In this document: positions 936-63,477 of the stretch, in pieces
Layout of the letters: each line of letters starts with the position of its first letter
Numbering within the stretch: position 1 is the stretch's first letter
Origin: a virus
Taxonomy: Duplodnaviria; Heunggongvirae; Uroviricota; Caudoviricetes
Length of the DNA: 64,000 nt
IMG/VR virus record: IMGVR_UViG_3300028260_000001
Location: 120,333-184,332 of that record
Reading direction: 5' to 3' (one strand)
Made by a program: the position numbers and the translations under genes
The notes under the pieces: model-generated
The model's database searches: none
The model's input: only the letters and a program-made list of their open reading frames with translations
What the model was told of the DNA's origin: nothing

Positions 936-1011
936 GGGTCATTAGTTCAATTGGCAGAACACCGGCCTCCAAAGCCGGGTGTTGGTGGTTCGAGTCCATC
1001 ATGGCCCGCCA
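936..1011 (+). tRNA. tRNA-Trp (anticodon CCA)
   Basis: Cloverleaf folded by hand: acceptor GGGTCAT/ATGGCCC, anticodon loop CUCCAAA, T-loop GGTTCGAGTCC, encoded CCA. Confidence 0.85.
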
Positions 1012-1768
1012 ATTTCATCACAGACTTCGGTCTGCAAGTCCTCTGGTCTAACACACCTTAGGCAATCGATTTTGTAAGAGCCCATGACAGGGTGTTGGGT
1101 AAGTGCACTCCACCCCACTGCGCTGAAAAGGTCGCCTGAGTCCGAATAGATGAAGGTAGAGGATCGTTTCATCACTCTCTTACAATACGTCTCTCCACTG
1201 AGAGATGCAAGACCTTGGACTTAATCCGTCCTAGGCTCTGGACTACACAGGTGTCTGATTAATCCTCAGACTAGGGCGCAGAGTTGCACTTGTGAGTTCT
1301 ATGAATGATACCCAATGACGACTGATAAAAGACTAGAGTAATCAGTTAACAGGGAAACTCGATGCCCGTACCCTCGATACCCCAAAGGCCAGATAGTCCT
1401 GGTTACTAAGGCGCTCATTCCGAAGAAGCGTGATGACTCGGCTACAACGGATTAGTAGATTCCGTCACCGGTCTACATTGAGAACCTAAGGGTTTTAGAT
1501 GTGAGGCCATCTGCACGACAGTGAGCCTTCGGGTGGTCATAGTCCCAATGAGGAAGGGCGTTTCCTCCGCGCACACGGGTGTACCTCTTGAGTGGTTACT
1601 TGGTGTGCACATATTCTCGAATACTTGCCCTCCATCGCATTCTGAAGCTGCTTGTGAGGTGAGTAGTAGATAGACCTAACTTCCGTGCTAGTCTTCATGA
1701 ACAGCGATGTGTTAGGTTGAAAAGTTCCCCAGTGGCGATCTACAAGTTTGTATAGCTGGGACTAATTA
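1012..1768 (+). ncRNA. ORF-free highly structured RNA region with group I intron-like core elements (candidate ribozyme/intron or large ncRNA)
   Basis: No ORF >=60 aa over 757 nt. CAGACTA at 1267-1273 and AGATAGTCC at 1391-1399 give the GACTA/TAGTC P7-like pairing (elements R and S). CAGGGAAACUCG GNRA hairpin at 1350-1361; multiple UUCG and GAAA hairpins. Confidence 0.3.
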
Positions 1769-1853
1769 GCCGGAATGGTGGAGTGGAATACACAACGCAC
1801 TTAAAATGCGTCGCCCATCGGGATCGCGAGTTCGAATCTCGCTTCCGGCACCA
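1769..1853 (+). tRNA. tRNA-Leu (anticodon TAA), class II with long variable arm
   Basis: Acceptor GCCGGAA/TTCCGGC, anticodon loop CUUAAAA, T-loop GAGTTCGAATCTC, CCA encoded. Confidence 0.85.
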
Positions 1854-1864
1854 AACAACATAGT

Positions 1865-1890
1865 GCTTCCCCTAGGGGAAGCTTTATGCC
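1865..1890 (+). repeat. intergenic hairpin cassette (GCTTCCCCTAGGGGAAGC + TTTATGCC)
   Basis: 18-bp perfect palindrome followed by TTTATGCCG; identical palindrome recurs at 2603-2620. Confidence 0.6.
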
Positions 1891-1970
1891 GCAATGTTAT
1901 GTTTAGGAGATAATAGAATGTTCAAACAACTATTAGCAGGTATAACTACAGTTTGGAATTGGTGACTTAA

Positions 1971-2588
1971 ATGATGGAAACATTATTAATGCGTGCTCAG
2001 GTGACACCGTCAAATGTACCAGGGCCAGCAACCCTACGTAATGGGGACAGTACATTAGGTTATTATGGACAAGTACCAACGTCTGAATTCATTACTAGTA
2101 CTGACTTAGCCACCCAAGTTAACTTGACGGCGGGTACAGCGCTTGCAAACAACGAGACATGGTTGAAGTTTGCATATAAAGGAAAGGTGCTCTTTGTTGC
2201 TATGCAACCATTCCGTAACTTCATCTCACCAACGCAACTAGAAGCAGCGAATCTAATCAACGGCGCTAAAACAATTACGTTCTTAGGTCGTCTATATAAA
2301 GTTCGTTTGATGTTGGGTGGTGCAGCATCGCCAGGTAATGGGAGCGAATGGAACGACCTGATCTACCGTGTACACGCTAGTGATCCTACAGGGTCTAATT
2401 GGGAAGCGTTCACAAACGCCGATCTGGTGGTAGGGGTTGGTAACGGGCGTACGTCGTGGTGTCAGGAAATACCATCCGGTACTAACCGTACGTATCGCGG
2501 ATATGCGTCATTAACAGAGTGGGCATCTGGCGGCACTGGTTCAGCCACAGCTACAACAGGTTGGCGTCCAGTGCTAGAATTGGTCTAG
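1971..2588 (+). CDS. hypothetical protein (possible tail-fibre/receptor-binding component)
   Basis: 205-aa ORF between lectin-domain genes; Gly/Ser/Thr-rich C-terminus; preceded by 15-codon upstream ORF 1918-1965. Confidence 0.5.
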   Translation: MMETLLMRAQVTPSNVPGPATLRNGDSTLGYYGQVPTSEFITSTDLATQVNLTAGTALANNETWLKFAYKGKVLFVAMQPFRNFISPTQLEAANLINGAKTITFLGRLYKVRLMLGGAASPGNGSEWNDLIYRVHASDPTGSNWEAFTNADLVVGVGNGRTSWCQEIPSGTNRTYRGYASLTEWASGGTGSATATTGWRPVLELV

Positions 2589-2602
2589 TGGAACGACATA
2601 AG

Positions 2603-2620
2603 GCTTCCCCTAGGGGAAGC
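2603..2620. repeat. palindromic hairpin between convergent genes (probable bidirectional terminator)
   Basis: Same 18-mer as 1865-1882; sits between the + gene ending 2588 and the - gene ending 2631. Confidence 0.55.
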
Positions 2621-2630
2621 CAATATGACA

Positions 2631-3590
2631 TCATTCAATGTAAAGGTGATCGGTACGAACCATAGACGCATCACCTGCCTTACCTAAACCGTTGAAGAAG
2701 TGGAACTCTCCATTCTCAACTGCTGAAGCGAAACCACCACGTTTGGTTAGCGTATCGCCAGTAAGGGTAAGATTACGCCAACTGTTTAGTCCAGGGATGT
2801 ATTCCCAGAAGTCAGCTAAGGAATCTGTAGCGTTACCATCCGTATAACCGCCGAACACATAGAACTTGCCATAAGCTGGAAGCAAACAGGAATAGCATCG
2901 AATGGCAGGTTGTGTGGCTGGAGCAACAAATCCGTTGTATACGTTATCGCCGATGGTATAACGAATTATGTCGTTATTCGTTTTAGATCCACCGTTAGTC
3001 AACCCACCGAAAATATAAACCCCAGTACCAGAAATTGCGATAGCGTGTCCATGTCTGGATTCTGGCAATTGTGCAATCACACGCCAAGTATTATTTGAAA
3101 TGGTGTAGACATCGGCTAACCTTAATTGCGGTGTAGCTTGAGTACCGTTCCAGCCACCAAAGAAATAGATCTCTCCTTGGTATACAACTGCACCATGGTA
3201 AGTACGTCCCAAGTTCGGAGTAGGGGTAAGAGAAGTCCAAGTGTCTGTAGCAATGTCGTAAGCATGCAACTCTTTGGTATAGGTCGATGAGTTGACCGTA
3301 TTACCGGAGAATAGATAGATCTTTCCATTCCAGTAAGACAGTGTACCACCTGACCGACCATTTGGTAAGTTAGCTAAGTTCACCCACTGTCGTGTAGTAA
3401 GATCAAATCTTCGGAAAGTCGATATTGCACCACCACTACCATCCTGAAGTCGACCACCTCCAAGGTATATACCACCGTTACAGCCAATGGCCATAGCTCC
3501 AGAGTTGCCGGGTAATAGGTCACCAACCAACGTTACGCGAGTCTCTAATTTCTTAGGGGGCTTCCCAGGAAATAATAATTGTTCAAACAT
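2631..3590 (-). CDS. Kelch-repeat beta-propeller protein (galactose-oxidase-like fold), probable receptor-binding/tail-associated
   Basis: Repeated GG....Y..D/N..T..W blades (YDIATDTWTSL, FDLTTRQWVNL, YTISNNTWRVI). Confidence 0.65.
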   Translation of the reverse strand: MFEQLLFPGKPPKKLETRVTLVGDLLPGNSGAMAIGCNGGIYLGGGRLQDGSGGAISTFRRFDLTTRQWVNLANLPNGRSGGTLSYWNGKIYLFSGNTVNSSTYTKELHAYDIATDTWTSLTPTPNLGRTYHGAVVYQGEIYFFGGWNGTQATPQLRLADVYTISNNTWRVIAQLPESRHGHAIAISGTGVYIFGGLTNGGSKTNNDIIRYTIGDNVYNGFVAPATQPAIRCYSCLLPAYGKFYVFGGYTDGNATDSLADFWEYIPGLNSWRNLTLTGDTLTKRGGFASAVENGEFHFFNGLGKAGDASMVRTDHLYIE

Positions 3591-3638
3591 CAGAATATAC
3601 CTAAGGCTAAGTCTTATAGGATGTCGGGAAAAAATACT

Positions 3639-3658
3639 ACGAGTATAATAATATACGA

Positions 3659-3659
<1 letters not shown>
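3639..3659 (+). promoter_or_regulatory. promoter candidate for tRNA cluster 2 (TATAAT at 3644-3649 + conserved TATACGAG)
   Basis: Perfect -10 hexamer 10 nt before the tRNA 5' end; 20-mer shared with 813-832. Confidence 0.4.
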
Positions 3660-3743
<84 letters not shown>

Positions 3744-3750
3744 ATTACCA

Positions 3751-3840
3751 GGAAGTATGGCCGAGTGGTCAATGGCTCGGGCCTTGAAAACCCGCGACCC
3801 TTAAGTGGGTCCTAGAGTTCGAATCTCTATGCTTCCGCCA
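3751..3840 (+). tRNA. tRNA-Ser (anticodon TGA), class II
   Basis: Acceptor GGAAGTA/TGCTTCC, loop CUUGAAA (31-39 C-A mismatch), 18-nt variable arm, T-loop TTCGAAT, G73, CCA. Confidence 0.8.
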
Positions 3841-3848
3841 GTTACAAA

Positions 3849-3934
3849 GCTGAGATGGCAGAGTGGTTGAATGCACGGGATTGCAAATCCTGCATCGAAA
3901 GATCTCGGGGGTTCGAATCCCTCTCTCAGCTCCA
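3849..3934 (+). tRNA. atypical class II (long variable arm, Ser/Leu-like body) tRNA with anticodon GCA (would read Cys codons UGY); discriminator U73
   Basis: Acceptor GCTGAGA/TCTCAGC, D-arm TGGCAGAGTGGTTGAATGCA, anticodon stem CGGGA/TCCTG with loop UUGCAAA, variable arm ATC-GAAA-GAT hairpin, T-arm GGGGGTTCGAATCCCTC, TCCA. Confidence 0.6.
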
Positions 3935-3935
3935 A

Positions 3936-4011
3936 GCCGCTATAGCTCAGTTGGTAGAGCAGCTGACTTGTAATCAGCAGGTCCCCGGTTCGAATCCGTG
4001 TGGCGGCACCA
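3936..4011 (+). tRNA. tRNA-Thr (anticodon TGT)
   Basis: Acceptor GCCGCTA/TGGCGGC, loop CUUGUAA, T-loop GGTTCGAATCC, CCA; 1-nt spacer to previous tRNA. Confidence 0.85.
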
Positions 4012-11778: not shown

Positions 11779-11795
11779 ATGTGATATAGATCTGA
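11779..11795 (-). promoter_or_regulatory. promoter-like motif (sense: GATCTATATCACATTAG)
   Basis: Member of the 7-copy CTATAT(T/C)AC family. Confidence 0.4.
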
Positions 11796-16437: not shown

Positions 16438-16483
16438 TTTTATTTACTCCTAATGTGGTGTATCTACAGCTGTTATATAGCTG

Positions 16484-24241: not shown

Positions 24242-24655
24242 CTAAGCTTTGCTCCAACGGAGCGTAGCCACAGGCTTGGACAAATTGGTTTGTTCGAATC
24301 GAGTGATCCGTTCACCTACCAATTTGATCTGTACCCGGAAGAACAAAACGTCTTCAGAGTTTCGTAGGATTGGGCTCAGCTTCGCCACTTCCTCAGACTT
24401 GTGGTAACGTACCTCAGTGCCTGTGATCGTGATATAGAAGTCATTCAGCCCAGCGTGTAGCTTCTTACTCCCATCAGGAGAAACAAGCTTAGAACGCTCT
24501 ACAACGCGCTGGTTACCGTACATCGTGGTAACGTCTACGCTGTCAAAGTTCATTTCCATTACTGGCTTTCGTGCCCAACTGAGCAACCACCAAACACCAG
24601 CCACCATGCCCAGAAAAATCAGGGCCAAATTTCCTGCACTTACATCTACTAACAT
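24242..24655 (-). CDS. hypothetical membrane protein
   Basis: N-terminal TM. Confidence 0.45.
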   Translation of the reverse strand: MLVDVSAGNLALIFLGMVAGVWWLLSWARKPVMEMNFDSVDVTTMYGNQRVVERSKLVSPDGSKKLHAGLNDFYITITGTEVRYHKSEEVAKLSPILRNSEDVLFFRVQIKLVGERITRFEQTNLSKPVATLRWSKA

Positions 24656-29071: not shown

Positions 29072-29088
29072 GAAAGTAATATAGGCTT
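29072..29088 (-). promoter_or_regulatory. promoter-like motif (sense: AAAAGCCTATATTACTTTCG)
   Basis: CTATATTACT family; shares a 29-mer with 41698-41726. Confidence 0.45.
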
Positions 29089-36031: not shown

Positions 36032-36048
36032 GAGAGTAATATAGATTT
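36032..36048 (-). promoter_or_regulatory. promoter-like motif (sense: AAATCTATATTACTCTCG)
   Basis: CTATATTACT family, directly downstream of terminator 36065-36102. Confidence 0.45.
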
Positions 36049-41697: not shown

Positions 41698-41714
41698 CGT
41701 AGTAATATAGGCTT
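41698..41714 (-). promoter_or_regulatory. promoter-like motif (sense: CAAGCCTATATTACTACGG)
   Basis: CTATATTACT family. Confidence 0.45.
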
Positions 41715-49712: not shown

Positions 49713-51539
49713 TTAGGCTTCGACTACCAGTTCATCCAGATCGAATTCTTCCATCTCATCAGCGATGGATTCTTCGATGTAGTTGCGCATGTTAGCCAGA
49801 GTAGTGGTGTGAACGAATTGACCACCCATCCACAGAGGTTTCAGTTCGCCAGACTTGGTAGCCAGATCCAGCCAATCCATGTCGACGCCTTGTGCCAGCT
49901 TGAAGTCGAAGCAATCTTCATCTACCCGCAGGAAACCACGAGCCGATTTCTTCGATGCAGCAGTCTTCGGATCTTTGTACAGTTCCACCAGACGTTCACG
50001 CACTTCACACGCGGTAGCTTTCATAGCCATACCGAAGGTGTCGCGAGTGTTATACTGATAGGTATACGAACCGATACCCAACACGACGTTCGACGAAGCG
50101 AAACCTTTGTTAGCCAGGCGCTGGAAGATCTGTTCGGTGCGTTCTACAGTGATCGAGTCACCATAGATCAGGCCGATGTATTCGTTCAGGACTTTGTAGC
50201 CCTTTCCGTTTACGTGACCACCGAAGGATTCCCACAGCGATTCAATTGCACCGATCGCTTCCGCACGAGACATCTCACGACCAATGTAACTATCAGGATC
50301 ATTCCCAATATAGTCTTGGTTGTCCAACTCGAAATAGCGATCACCGATGCGAATAGCTTCGCCATTGACTGCACACCAACCGATGTTGTACAATGCCTGT
50401 TGGAATGCTGACATCGACTCGTATTCGACCAAGGTAAAGCCAGTGATGACTTTAACAGGATCACCCGAGTCAGGACGCACTACGACTTTCGCCAGACCCA
50501 GAGCGTTCTTCTTACGTGCTTCAATCTCTACCCGCAGAGAAGGCAGTACGTTTGCAATCACACCCCAGAAGTCGAACGAGTCACATACCAGCGACACGAT
50601 ACCTTCGTTGACTTTCTTGCTGATGATCTCCAGGATGAACTCACGTTCACACTGTAGTTTCAGACGATCGATCAAACCAACGTATTGCTCGTGTGGCATT
50701 GCTGCCAGTTCAGCTGGATCAATAGCTTCCAACATGTCTTGCAGGCGCGACAGGATATTCGCAGTAGCTACGGCGTGCTCAGTAGCAGTAACCGAAGCAC
50801 CTACCAGTTCCTTATCGGAATCAGCACCGTACAGCGCTTCGAGGTAGTCGATCGACGGGATGGTATCGGTACCAGCGAATGCCAGCAGGTGACCACCGTT
50901 AGAACGACCAGCAGCTTCTGGACCAGGCATACCACGGAACGAGAAGTCGTGACCTTGGAACAGGATGTGGTCACGGTTATCACAGGTCTTGGCTGCCCAA
51001 CGTTCCATCACACGACGATATTCGTAGGCGATAGTGGCGTTGGTAATTTGCTGCCAGTTGTACGACGACAGGATGGTTTCCAGGTAGTTAACCAACCAGT
51101 AGTGTTCTTTGTGCTCTTCTTCGTTGTACAGTACCCACAGCGGAATACCGATGTTAACGCGTTTGCCTTCTTCCAGAGCCAGCACGGTTACAGGCAGGTA
51201 GCCTACGTCATGCAGTGCAGCGATCTGTTTGACCGAGATGACATCAACACCACAAGCATTGTCGAAGCGACGCTTGATCTTCTTGATGGCCTTCTCTTTT
51301 TCGACCTTGAAGAAGGTACGATCCCACAGCTCAACCAGTTCTTGCCAGGTACCGTAGATACCGAAGTTTACGACTTTGTTGTCGTAGTACGACGAAGCCG
51401 ATTTCGAGCGCATGAAGTTCTTGGCCGAACGCGGGGTGAAGTTCGAATACTTACGGGTGGTGCCTTCCGGGTACAGAGGACCGTGGCCTGGTTTGTAGAA
51501 GTCAGTACCGGTACCAGCTTGAAGCCAAAGTGCAGACAT
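49713..51539 (-). CDS. nadV: nicotinamide phosphoribosyltransferase family protein (NadV / Namat-like)
   Basis: FYKPGH, GHDFSFRGMPGPEAAG, GTDT, VVRPDSGDPVKVI align to NAMPT/NadV blocks; 608 aa. Confidence 0.8.
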   Translation of the reverse strand: MSALWLQAGTGTDFYKPGHGPLYPEGTTRKYSNFTPRSAKNFMRSKSASSYYDNKVVNFGIYGTWQELVELWDRTFFKVEKEKAIKKIKRRFDNACGVDVISVKQIAALHDVGYLPVTVLALEEGKRVNIGIPLWVLYNEEEHKEHYWLVNYLETILSSYNWQQITNATIAYEYRRVMERWAAKTCDNRDHILFQGHDFSFRGMPGPEAAGRSNGGHLLAFAGTDTIPSIDYLEALYGADSDKELVGASVTATEHAVATANILSRLQDMLEAIDPAELAAMPHEQYVGLIDRLKLQCEREFILEIISKKVNEGIVSLVCDSFDFWGVIANVLPSLRVEIEARKKNALGLAKVVVRPDSGDPVKVITGFTLVEYESMSAFQQALYNIGWCAVNGEAIRIGDRYFELDNQDYIGNDPDSYIGREMSRAEAIGAIESLWESFGGHVNGKGYKVLNEYIGLIYGDSITVERTEQIFQRLANKGFASSNVVLGIGSYTYQYNTRDTFGMAMKATACEVRERLVELYKDPKTAASKKSARGFLRVDEDCFDFKLAQGVDMDWLDLATKSGELKPLWMGGQFVHTTTLANMRNYIEESIADEMEEFDLDELVVEA

Positions 51540-51548
51540 GTTGAATCC

Positions 51549-52493
51549 TTAGAGGTGCTTGAATGCGATCAGGTTTTCAGGATTGTTCTCACGGGAAGGC
51601 AGATCCACGTGATAGGTATTCATGGTGTAAACTTTGTCGAAGACATCGGTCAACACATTGATGCCAGCCGAGAAGATGCCGTGAGTGACGTAGAGCGACA
51701 ACGAACCCAGGTCATATTGCTTCAGGACCTTAGCGAGCTCAGTGAAGGTACGGCCACCATCACAGATGTCATCAACGATCAACAGTTCTTCGCCGCGGAG
51801 TTCATCGAGTTCCAGAACTTCTTCACCGCAAACAAAGCTGTCTACAGTAGTGCGCAGGATCTTGCCGTCACGAGTGTTACGTACCTTGTTAGCGTACACA
51901 ACACCTTTGAAGCCGAATTCCTTTGCCAGCGATTCGACTTTCTTACGTGCACCAGCATCTGGAGCAACCAAGATGGTCTTAGCTGGGTTGATTCGATCGA
52001 CACTGCCGATATCTAGCATGTGCTTGCGGAACAGATCATTCAGCGAGAACACACGAGCATTGTTCAGCACCGAACCAATCACGTCAGAGTGAGGGTCTGT
52101 CAGAACAACACGCTCAACATTCAAACTGTTGATGACGTGGGCAAACGCCTTAGCTGAATTCGCTTCACCTGGATTGCACACACGGTCTTGACGAGCGTAT
52201 GGCATGTAGCCGATGTCCAGAGTAATCTGTGGGTTAGCTACGGTCGCGTTTTCACGGATAGCGTTAACAGCCATGATCAAAGACCAAGCAGCAGCTGCGT
52301 CAGGTAGAGCAGCTACAATGCGATAAGTCTCGCCTTTATACCAGACACCCTTGCGACCATGTACATCCTCACGTGGGATAGATACGTTCACTTCACCCGC
52401 AGGGAACATTCGCCCATCGCGGATTTCGGTAGGGAAGGACTGGGAGTGACCCAATCCCTCCTGAGTAACGATCAACTTCAGATTCTGTGTCAT
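51549..52493 (-). CDS. prs: ribose-phosphate pyrophosphokinase family protein (Prs / Adps-like)
   Basis: GEVNVSIPRED, YMPYARQDR, LIVDDICDGGRTF (PRPP-binding loop). Confidence 0.8.
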   Translation of the reverse strand: MTQNLKLIVTQEGLGHSQSFPTEIRDGRMFPAGEVNVSIPREDVHGRKGVWYKGETYRIVAALPDAAAAWSLIMAVNAIRENATVANPQITLDIGYMPYARQDRVCNPGEANSAKAFAHVINSLNVERVVLTDPHSDVIGSVLNNARVFSLNDLFRKHMLDIGSVDRINPAKTILVAPDAGARKKVESLAKEFGFKGVVYANKVRNTRDGKILRTTVDSFVCGEEVLELDELRGEELLIVDDICDGGRTFTELAKVLKQYDLGSLSLYVTHGIFSAGINVLTDVFDKVYTMNTYHVDLPSRENNPENLIAFKHL

Positions 52494-54220: not shown

Positions 54221-54894
54221 CAGTTAAGCCCAGGTTGGATTGTAACGACACTGTCCCAGTTTTCACCGGCAGCTTGTACGTATTCGTAGAATGCATCAAT
54301 TGCTTCGGGAGAAGATATGTGGTTCACCCCTTCTTTGGTTGGTTCCAGCTTCTGGTCTGTAAGAGTCCAGTGGAACTCTTCGTTGTCGTACATCAGGGCG
54401 AAAACGTCATAACGAACATTTAGTACAACAGTTACTTCGAGCAGGTTAGTGAAGCCAACCTTGTTCGTATTAACACCCACGACAGTCGCATCGACATATG
54501 GCTGGAGCTGCTCGTAGCTGTATGCACCAGCGAGTTTGGAAAGGCGGAGACCCCAATCCATAACTTGGTCCATTAGTCCACGTTCAACCATGTCCACAAA
54601 CGGTACCATGTCGTTACCAACTTGCTCCATATTCGGAGCATGTGTATATTGACGAGTACTAACATCCATGTGGTATAGGTGTCCGTTATTCTGGCGGTGC
54701 ACCGGAAGGAAGTTGAAGACGATTCGATGGAGCTCTTCCGAGTGTACCAGAGTTTCCTCAGGGCACCAGATCAAGTCCTTATAGAACATGTCGTTAAGGG
54801 CGTAAAGATCCACGGGTGTGAACCGTGGAGTCTTTGCCATGAAATCGAATACCGCTGTCTTACGTACAGCAGGAACCAGACGATCCAGGTTCAC
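54220..54894 (-). CDS. hypothetical protein
   Basis: 224 aa; ATGA overlap with neighbours. Confidence 0.5.
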   Translation of the reverse strand: MNLDRLVPAVRKTAVFDFMAKTPRFTPVDLYALNDMFYKDLIWCPEETLVHSEELHRIVFNFLPVHRQNNGHLYHMDVSTRQYTHAPNMEQVGNDMVPFVDMVERGLMDQVMDWGLRLSKLAGAYSYEQLQPYVDATVVGVNTNKVGFTNLLEVTVVLNVRYDVFALMYDNEEFHWTLTDQKLEPTKEGVNHISSPEAIDAFYEYVQAAGENWDSVVTIQPGLN

Positions 54895-55583
54895 GCTTTA
54901 CCCCCTTGGATAACACGCAGGTGTGGCGGACATACACGACGTTTACGTGGAGTAGGCAGCGAGAAGCCACCAACGTCGCCGAAGTCGAGGAGTGGTTTGG
55001 GTTGTTCTTTTGGTGCAGGTGCAGCAGGACGTTGTGCCAGAGGCTTGCGTTTCATCAACTCTTGAAGCGTCGGCAGTTGATTGCCGTCTTCATCATGCGT
55101 CAGTGGTTCTACGCCATGCACTGCGTAAGCACCATCGGGCAGTGTGTCACCTTCCATATCACCCATCGGACCTTGCATACCACTTTGGGCCAGAAGGTCT
55201 TGCAGTTCTTCACGGAGTTGAATACCCAGCAGTTCACGCTCGACATTCGGGATAGGCAGGAAGCTTTGAGTCGAATCGGAAGTCGGAACGATGAAACCCA
55301 GTACAGCAGCGTACGGAACTTCTACGAAAACGTCTTGACGATTGTAGCCACAGTTGAAGCTGAAGTTTTCTTCATTGTAGCTGAAATTCTTGGTTGCGTT
55401 TGCAGCGATGTTCAGTTTGATCTGATACAGCCCGTTTACTTCAGGTTCCATGATACCGACATCAAACATGCGGGCATCAGCAACCAACAGGATACGACGT
55501 GGCATATCCATGTCGATGAACCACTGGATCATGGTGTTCATTACGGCACGGGTCATGTTCAGCTCAGGTGCGGCTTGCAGCAT
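54891..55583 (-). CDS. SspB-like ClpXP adaptor homologue with C-terminal tail ending LRVIQGGKA
   Basis: QIKLNIAANATKNFSYNEENFSFNCGYNRQDVFVEVPYAAVLGFIV aligns to the E. coli SspB block QIVLNIAPRAVGNLELANDEVRFNARFGGIPRQVSVPLAAVLAIYA. N-terminal IQWFIDMDMPRRILLVAD matches YEWLLDNQLTPHLVVDV. Confidence 0.6.
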   Translation of the reverse strand: MLQAAPELNMTRAVMNTMIQWFIDMDMPRRILLVADARMFDVGIMEPEVNGLYQIKLNIAANATKNFSYNEENFSFNCGYNRQDVFVEVPYAAVLGFIVPTSDSTQSFLPIPNVERELLGIQLREELQDLLAQSGMQGPMGDMEGDTLPDGAYAVHGVEPLTHDEDGNQLPTLQELMKRKPLAQRPAAPAPKEQPKPLLDFGDVGGFSLPTPRKRRVCPPHLRVIQGGKA

Positions 55584-55614
55584 TGTCTTACTCCAATTTT
55601 AGCGTTAGAATTCA

Positions 55615-55631
55615 AAGTAGTGATATAGATT
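55615..55631 (-). promoter_or_regulatory. promoter-like motif (sense: AAAGTTTGAAATCTATATCACTACTTTG)
   Basis: Near-identical 28-mer at 63461-63488. Confidence 0.45.
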
Positions 55632-60203: not shown

Positions 60204-60277
60204 GGCGTAATCCTTACTATTAAAAGGGCTATATTCACGATTGTAATATAGCCTTTTAATTAGTTTAAATCATGCCA

Positions 60278-63460: not shown

Positions 63461-63477
63461 AGTAGTAATATAGATCT
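63461..63477 (-). promoter_or_regulatory. promoter-like motif (sense: AAAGTTTGAGATCTATATTACTACTTTGG)
   Basis: CTATATTACT family; directly downstream of terminator 63494-63526. Confidence 0.45.

Follow-up and report, generated by a model that had tools for sequence, protein, structure and literature searches.

A jumbo-phage protein with an SspB-type domain and a tail resembling the ClpX-binding motif of bacterial SspB

A 230-residue protein encoded in a 64,000-nucleotide stretch of a Caudoviricetes genome (IMG/VR virus record IMGVR_UViG_3300028260_000001, positions 120,333 to 184,332; the whole stretch is called the window below) appears, from its sequence and predicted structure, to be a divergent member of the SspB adaptor superfamily that belongs to a phage lineage and is the D6/Psa21-clade counterpart of phiKZ gp232. 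Its N-terminal domain is related to SspB's substrate-binding domain, its C-terminal tail resembles the motif with which SspB binds ClpX, and the protein probably docks on the ClpX of the host. The window itself derives from a jumbo phage that is phiKZ-like, related to the Chimalliviridae and close to Pseudomonas phage D6 (host P. syringae, 307 kb), with which it shares ~86% nucleotide identity; D6 carries a PhuZ tubulin and split multisubunit RNA polymerases, and the nearest classified relative with an SspB-like gene is Psa21, a member of the Chimalliviridae. The SspB-like open reading frame (ORF) lies on the minus strand exactly where an initial annotation of the window had placed it, with all the sequence strings quoted there present (Table 1), and its D6 ortholog, the hypothetical protein WDS62141, is 91% identical to it in amino acid sequence.

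Taken as a single sequence, the protein shows borderline similarity to SspB, as it matches the Pfam family PF04386 (SspB) with E = 5.4e-4 and 20.4 bits, below the gathering score of 27, and its best phmmer match in the PDB has E = 0.0097. The top 10 PDB matches are nonetheless all SspB chains, and the six NCBIfam matches are all SspB models. The resemblance reaches significance with a family alignment of 13 sequences, made up of the window protein and 12 homologs (42–91% identity) from a collection of 5.8 billion proteins. Searched against the PDB, the profile of this family matches nothing but SspB chains, the best at E = 2.6e-7; 11 of the 13 members match PF04386, and an HHalign comparison with 42 classical bacterial SspBs gives a probability of 99.6% (E = 7.1e-24) over 100 columns. 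An AlphaFold2 (AF2) model built from the family alignment predicts a folded region at residues 10–133, where the predicted local distance difference test score (pLDDT) is 70–91 per 10-residue block and mostly 83–91, with the remainder disordered. The region comprises an SspB-type substrate-binding fold (residues 14–113 in the core aligned by hidden Markov models (HMM)) and a family-specific helix (residues 114–133), and it begins with a predicted amphipathic helix (residues 10–24) that retains W21 and the hydrophobic positions. A Foldseek search of the PDB with this model returns gamma-proteobacterial SspBs as its top 13 matches (probability 1.00; template modeling (TM) score normalized to the target 0.60–0.75), the best-superposed chains having a root-mean-square deviation of ~3 Å over ~103 columns, and alpha-proteobacterial SspBs come next. 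Because the profile, HHalign and AF2/Foldseek results agree, we regard the homology of the predicted N-terminal domain to the SspB substrate-binding domain as settled. The likeness to SspB reported in the initial annotation is thus borne out by the structure and profile comparisons that it had itself proposed.

The protein shares with bacterial SspB (the E. coli, H. influenzae and Pseudomonas proteins; PF04386; PDB 1OX9, 1OU8 and 8ET3) both the substrate-binding fold, with part of its conserved core, and the overall architecture, in which a folded domain is followed by a disordered linker and then, after a basic/Pro patch, by a C-terminal motif resembling the type that binds the ClpX N-domain. 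It differs in being encoded by a virus, in having only ~21–26% identity to the bacterial proteins, in the extra helix after the domain, and in length, as phage-type proteins are ~90 residues longer (median 238 versus 149 residues). In a column-wise comparison of 40 phage-type with 54 classical sequences we used E. coli numbering and assessed the substrate groove by conservation alone. Bacterial columns that are at least 80% conserved are W20, G49, L53, N54, A59, F72, R75, F76, G78, P86 and A89. The window protein retains W20, L53, N54, A59, F72, P86 and A89 (as W21, L57, N58, A63, F76, P90 and A93, respectively) and has changes at G49 (Y53), R75 (G79), F76 (Y80) and G78 (R82). The strand motif QIxLNI(A/S)xxA is retained, and the phage family has invariant residues of its own (F40, D41, Y69, C78, Y91 and P112-N113-x-E-R116). 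A 2022 cryo-electron microscopy study noted that high conservation in SspB is limited to the ssrA groove and the dimer interface. The loss of R75 and F76 may therefore have altered the peptide specificity of the phage protein.

Position-by-position comparison with bacterial tails marks the C-terminal tail, PPHLRVIQGGKA, as a probable derivative of the ClpX-binding (XB) motif, in agreement with the initial annotation, which had found its ending LRVIQGGKA reminiscent of the ClpX-binding tail of SspB. An exhaustive profile search of 1.84 billion representative sequences gave 122 matches, 24 of them at E ≤ 1e-10. The tail consensus is [RK]-P-x-L-[RKT]-[VI]-[VI]-K-COOH among classical SspBs (n = 54, typical SspB length) and P-P-x-[LMW]-[TR]-[VL]-I-[QKE]-G-G-K-x among phage-type proteins (n = 40, mostly longer). 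The LRVIQ core of the window tail lines up with the bacterial L-[RKT]-[VI]-[VI]-K, and a near-invariant GGK comes after it. Within PPHLRVIQ, four of the five XB core positions and the preceding proline agree with the bacterial motif, and relative to bacterial tails such as ...SHLRVIK the change amounts essentially to the replacement of K by Q and the GGKA extension. The C-terminus of phiKZ gp232, PKLTVIKGGKK, consists of a canonical LTVIK followed by GGKK. The GGK tail is kept in 40 database members as well as in phiKZ, PhiPA3, 201phi2-1 and Viktualia, which provides the survey of the tail in related phages that the initial annotation had suggested, and the window protein fits every position of the resulting GGK-tailed architecture (an SspB-like N-domain, a linker of at least 100 residues, and [LMW]-x-[VL]-[IH]-x-G-G-K after a basic/Pro patch). 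The tail pattern occurs on one of the 741 stop-to-stop segments of the window and on one of 3407 in phage D6; we had considered whether the tail is a portable docking tag for other proteins, and this local scan places it on no other ORF in the window or D6. Internal XB motifs are present in some bacterial SspBs. Binding of the XB peptide RGGRPALRVVK to the ClpX N-domain is documented, as is its competition with other clients; SspB-delivered substrates, lambda O, FtsZ and MqsA are all subject to this competitive inhibition of degradation (PMC3983244, PMC8808172). Replacement of residues 128–135 of the P. aeruginosa SspB tail with alanine raises the Kd for ClpX from ~27 nM to ~180 nM (PMC13251409).

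The linker that connects the domain to the tail is predicted to be disordered. It had been described as Pro/Ala-rich, and this holds for residues ~180–200; the rest is acidic and Gly-rich and carries conserved motifs. Of these, AYAVHG and LPTxxELMxRKPLAQR are conserved within the closer clade. Some 25 residues before the tail, 30 of 44 GGK-tailed members have a PLLDFG- or FFPDLD-like motif with a basic patch after it, and none of the classical SspB C-termini examined has a counterpart of PLLDFG or FFPDLD. GGK-tailed linkers vary in both length and motif, with PLLDFG in the window protein, FFPDLD in the 201phi2-1 group and neither in phiKZ. The C-terminal region of the window protein departs from that of bacterial SspB in two ways, in its conserved linker motifs, including PLLDFG, and in a tail where the XB lysine has become glutamine and is followed by GGK.

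A local tblastn search of the window and of the full D6 genome detects neither ClpX nor ClpP (best E ≥ 0.16), and ARAGORN finds no transfer-messenger RNA (tmRNA) in either, so any Clp partner and any ssrA tag must be the host's. We accordingly dropped a phage-encoded ClpX or ClpP as the partner, and also a phage tmRNA with a tag of its own; in the collection, ClpX-like or ClpP-like matches occur in 11 records of Pseudomonas phages. Expression of the SspB-like protein would start from a phage promoter, probably early, with synthesis in the cytoplasm, and the protein would dimerise via its N-terminal helix as SspB does. Its tail would then dock on the zinc-binding N-domain of ClpX, which would have to be that of the host because the phage has neither ClpX nor ClpP. 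Cargo held by the binding domain would thereby be tethered to host ClpXP for degradation, and the protein would compete with host SspB and with other N-domain-dependent clients, while PLLDFG and GGK would probably provide further contacts, making docking stronger or giving it a new specificity. The host ssrA tag and a different peptide are equally likely candidates for the cargo, because QIxLNIAxxA is kept, R75/F76 are replaced and family-specific invariant residues are present. We give about an even chance to this reading as a whole, in which the protein is a delivery adaptor that docks on the host ClpX N-domain and delivers cargo to ClpXP. The initial annotation had likewise proposed that such a protein might redirect host ClpXP towards defence proteins or titrate ClpX. 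We further hypothesize that the GGK-tailed proteins of phiKZ-type nucleus-forming phages could be early, high-affinity ClpX hijackers, with a bipartite docking element (PLLDFG/FFPDLD plus XB-GGK) that out-competes host SspB and a re-specified groove that feeds host proteins to ClpXP, for example cytoplasmic defence effectors dangerous to a phage that shields its DNA while its protein synthesis goes on in the cytoplasm. Such a protein would be a viral 'degrader' fashioned from an adaptor of the host; this more specific proposal is speculative and, we think, rather unlikely to hold.

Several observations weigh against delivery to ClpXP. The PF04386 score of 20.4 bits falls short of the gathering score of 27, and the matches to the six NCBIfam SspB equivalogs reach only 17–23 bits against cut-offs of 135–202, compared with the 174–189 bits scored on such models by a genuine Pseudomonas-type SspB (P0067). 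The R75/F76 pair, which is 85–94% conserved in bacteria, is G79/Y80 in the window protein and variable across the phage clade. In the tail, glutamine stands in place of the XB lysine, the motif stops short of the extreme C-terminus, and the key XB leucine is tryptophan or methionine in some family members. Finally, classical SspB has nothing equivalent to the conserved linker motifs and the GGK, and these could act on some partner other than ClpX. With scores below the curated cut-offs, R75/F76 lost and a linker that carries conserved motifs such as PLLDFG, the ORF product is, on sequence grounds, not an SspB ortholog.

Relatives of the protein are in D6, RVTF4 and Psa21, and more distant ones are in Viktualia, 201phi2-1, PhiPA3, PA1C-like phages and phiKZ. 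Family counterparts include phiKZ gp232, PhiPA3 gene 270 and 201phi2-1 gp347, which, like the homologs in Psa21, RVTF4, Viktualia and D6, occupy the same slot upstream of thymidylate synthase; GGK-tailed members outside D6 are 18–55% identical to the window protein. A related-locus search with the 13-sequence alignment identified four viral contigs. Two large proteins that initially scored as family members (P0034, 6096 residues, and P0086, 723 residues) were rejected as false positives, since they contain ~95-residue adhesin-type repeats that score 0–7 bits each and are significant only in sum.

The initial annotation knew of no description of such an adaptor in phages, and this claim does not stand. 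The RVTF4 record is labeled 'stringent starvation protein B', the Viktualia record 'Sspb-like stringent starvation protein' and 201phi2-1 gp347 'SspB domain-containing protein; similar to phiKZ gp232', while the entry for PhiPA3 gene 270 is annotated 'similar to stringent starvation protein B'. In BFVD the SspB fold is found in no fewer than 20 viral proteins, some of which bear the name SspB; apart from the present family these are short (129–175 residues). P. putida phage pf16 gp18 was reported in 2017 as a phage SspB and described as highly similar to that of the host, and gp039 of Erwinia phage RAY, a nucleus-forming jumbo phage, is a published phage SspB homolog that is cytoplasmic (PMC10299810). 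Both have likewise been proposed to act on host ClpXP, and both are more distant from the window protein, as neither is matched by it in tblastn at E ≤ 1e-3. Infected cells contain the phiKZ gp232 protein whereas virions lack it, and an mNeonGreen fusion of it was one in a set of six, the majority of them diffuse outside the phage nucleus and shell (PMC10449902). For no phage SspB homolog did we find a functional test in the literature. Phage proteins of other folds embody the same concept of an adaptor-type protein that perturbs or redirects a host AAA+ protease: SPO1 gp53 acts on ClpCP, and ClpAP is the target protease of ClpS. Adaptors of the ClpS type are encoded in jumbo phages (PMC7824862). 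Phage-encoded SspB homologs are therefore already annotated and published, and the ORF described here adds a member and anatomical detail but no new principle; the GGK extension, the PLLDFG/FFPDLD motif and the membership of phiKZ gp232 in this family appear not to have been described before.

The SspB-like gene is followed by two genes whose starts overlap the preceding stops (Table 1). The product of the first, the translationally coupled ORF224, has no Pfam or PHROG match, and a large search returned only its D6 ortholog. It is confined to the D6/Psa21 clade and is fast-evolving (24–31% identity among clade members), with its position and a C-terminal ...QPGL[NE] conserved. The second gene encodes the BCS1-like AAA ATPase that the initial annotation called membrane-anchored, and its BCS1_N and AAA domains are confirmed (PF08740, E = 1.9e-15; PF00004, E = 1.7e-13; phrog_7485, E = 5e-110); an N-terminal hydrophobic segment was judged by eye. 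The gene, which is widespread in jumbo phages, has already been catalogued there as a BCS1 ortholog (PMC7824862). A 114-residue ORF separates the ATPase gene from genes for proteins resembling phosphoribosyl pyrophosphate (PRPP) synthetase and NAMPT, the nicotinamide adenine dinucleotide (NAD+) salvage pair that had also been pointed out (49713..52493). This pair resembles the phage NAD+ reconstitution pathway that counters NAD-depleting defence. In Viktualia it is found on the upstream side of the SspB-like gene, not on the downstream side, and it thus moves around the locus. In a metagenomic relative (SRR25400098 contig, L005:2839-5250) the ATPase ortholog is 803 residues long and contains a LAGLIDADG_3 domain, which suggests an intein or homing-endonuclease insertion in this one relative.

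The gene order in the clade (SspB-like, ~237-residue ORF, BCS1-like AAA, ~113-residue ORF, Prs-like, NAMPT, thymidylate synthase) is maintained with tight junctions down to 42% identity. In phiKZ, 201phi2-1, PhiPA3 and Viktualia the SspB-like gene sits after a gp229-like gene and before thymidylate synthase. The window gene occupies the same phiKZ-like slot, and only in the D6/Psa21 clade have ORF224, the ATPase gene and the NAD genes been inserted between these anchors. No AAA gene is present within ~6 kb or more of the SspB-like gene in the phiKZ, 201phi2-1, PhiPA3 and Viktualia loci, and in PhiPA3 and PA1C an AAA homolog lies ~40–46 kb from it. The BCS1-like gene is found in 162 phage records from many host genera, and most of these records come from genera where the SspB-like family was not found. 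Because the arrangement is lineage-specific, having the SspB-like gene next to the AAA gene says little in favour of a functional module, and the link to the ATPase and the host-takeover or anti-defence island proposed in the initial annotation are likewise weakly supported.

Table 1. Features of the SspB-like gene, its product and its surroundings (window coordinates; residue numbers refer to the SspB-like protein).
Feature	Position	Strand	Basis or remark
SspB-like ORF, 230 aa	54891..55583	-	ATG start; stop codon 54891-54893
Folded N-terminal domain, residues 10-133	55185..55556	-	AF2 pLDDT, Foldseek, profile/HMM alignments
Predicted disordered linker, residues 134-217	54933..55184	-	pLDDT 35-53
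Linker motifs AYAVHG (152-157), LPTxxELMxRKPLAQR (170-185), KExPKPLLDFG (192-202) and basic patch RKRR (213-216)			Invariant family columns
PLLDFG motif, residues 197-202	54978..54995	-	C-terminal comparison, 44 members
XB-like tail PPHLRVIQGGKA, residues 219-230	54894..54929	-	Position-wise counts vs bacterial tails
Shine-Dalgarno GGAG	55591..55594	-	7 nt 5' of SspB-like ATG
Promoter-like element TATATCAC inside AAAAAGTTTGAAATCTATATCACTACTTTG	55620..55627	-	36 nt 5' of SspB-like ATG
TATAT[ACT]AC copies	63465-63472, 60243-60250, 55620-55627, 41702-41709, 36036-36043	-	Motif scan of window
TATAT[ACT]AC copies, remainder	29076-29083, 24429-24436, 16472-16479, 11781-11788	-	Motif scan of window
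ORF224, 224 aa	54220..54894	-	Start overlaps SspB-like stop by 4 nt
BCS1-like AAA+ ATPase (BCS1_N + AAA), 458 aa	52844..54220	-	Start overlaps ORF224 stop by 1 nt
PRPP-synthetase-like gene	51549-52493	-	
NAMPT-like gene	49713-51539	-	

Upstream of the SspB-like start codon, the promoter-like element is conserved in D6, Psa21 and two metagenomic relatives. The motif TATAT[ACT]AC has nine copies in the window, all on the coding (minus) strand and none on the other, and TATATYAC occurs 8 times against 2.9 expected. Most copies lie 33–40 nt 5' of a Shine-Dalgarno sequence and start codon and share the extended consensus AAAAnTTTGAAATC-TATATYAC-TACTTTG. The TATATTAC motif appears to resemble the early (virion RNA polymerase) promoter consensus of phiKZ. 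In three related loci a gene for a GIY-YIG / I-TevI-type homing endonuclease stands shortly upstream of the SspB-like gene, either directly (L004:7280-7990) or two small ORFs away (L002:6955-7521 and L003:5009-5575). No such gene is annotated in the matching region of D6, and the window ORFs just upstream have no such Pfam match; the site looks like a hot spot for mobile insertions. At the other end of the window, six tRNA genes (Trp, Leu x2, Ser, Cys and Thr; 936-4011, plus strand) form a cluster that corresponds to part of the 14-tRNA cluster of D6.

Delivery to ClpXP must be weighed against other uses of the same parts. The protein could instead be a ClpX blocker or anti-adaptor, whose XB-like tail and PLLDFG occupy the N-domain, or which sequesters ssrA-like tags, with no cargo being delivered. 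Such a blocker would stop SspB- and N-domain-dependent degradation during infection, for example protecting phage proteins or perturbing sigma-factor (AlgU/MucA) control. This would be in keeping with the finding that the XB peptide by itself inhibits degradation of lambda O, FtsZ, MqsA and the substrates that SspB delivers (PMC3983244, PMC8808172), and the authors of the pf16 study proposed competitive inhibition for their phage SspB. A longer and more conserved C-terminal module would also suit high-affinity occupancy, and the change of R75/F76 to G/Y could mean that ssrA delivery has been lost. A pure blocker needs only the tail, however, whereas the folded domain is strongly conserved and has family-specific invariant surface residues, which points to specific binding, and we consider blockade unlikely on balance.

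A second possibility is that the SspB fold has been repurposed outside proteolysis, as a peptide-binding chaperone or a scaffold at the phage nucleus shell or in assembly, with a tail that is vestigial or binds a phage partner. The differences between the tail and XB (K replaced by Q, L by W or M, and GGK added), the linker motifs absent from classical SspB and scores far below the ortholog cut-offs would all be consistent with this, and phiKZ gp232 did co-fractionate with shell-enriched material, although microscopy then failed to confirm localisation to the shell (PMC10449902). For fluorescent fusions of the homologs, the reported signal is diffuse and cytoplasmic, with no localisation to the shell (RAY gp039, PMC10299810; phiKZ gp232, one of six fusions of which most were diffuse, PMC10449902). 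Furthermore, a vestigial tail would not stay near-invariant down to ~20% identity, and its five core positions fall within the range of real bacterial XB motifs, so that we judge repurposing to be decidedly unlikely. It is also conceivable that the protein serves the phage's own membrane-anchored BCS1-like AAA+ protein, with the SspB-like protein, ORF224 and the ATPase acting as one machine that feeds clients to the phage ATPase. The overlaps of 4 nt and 1 nt among the three genes would fit such a machine, as would a gene order that stays equally tight in relatives with as little as 42% identity and an ATPase gene conserved enough to host a LAGLIDADG insertion in one of them. We rejected this as the leading explanation because the adjacency is specific to the D6/Psa21 clade: the AAA gene is not adjacent in phiKZ, 201phi2-1, PhiPA3 or Viktualia, its homolog is ~40–46 kb away in PhiPA3 and PA1C, and most of its 162 phage records come from host genera without a detected SspB-like family. 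ORF224 is itself clade-specific, and the tail resembles a ligand of the ClpX N-domain, a domain that BCS1-type ATPases presumably lack, which makes a partnership with the ATPase very improbable. Non-proteolytic repurposing and the ATPase partnership are thus both less likely than ClpXP delivery or N-domain blockade.

If docking on ClpX is borne out, the protein would plainly be an instance of a bacterial proteolysis adaptor copied and re-tooled by a virus in order to reprogram protein turnover in its host. That would be relevant both to jumbo-phage biology and to the engineering of targeted degradation in Pseudomonas. The XB-like core, the invariant GGK and PLLDFG are sharply testable features, and the family includes the tractable phages phiKZ (gp232) and PhiPA3.

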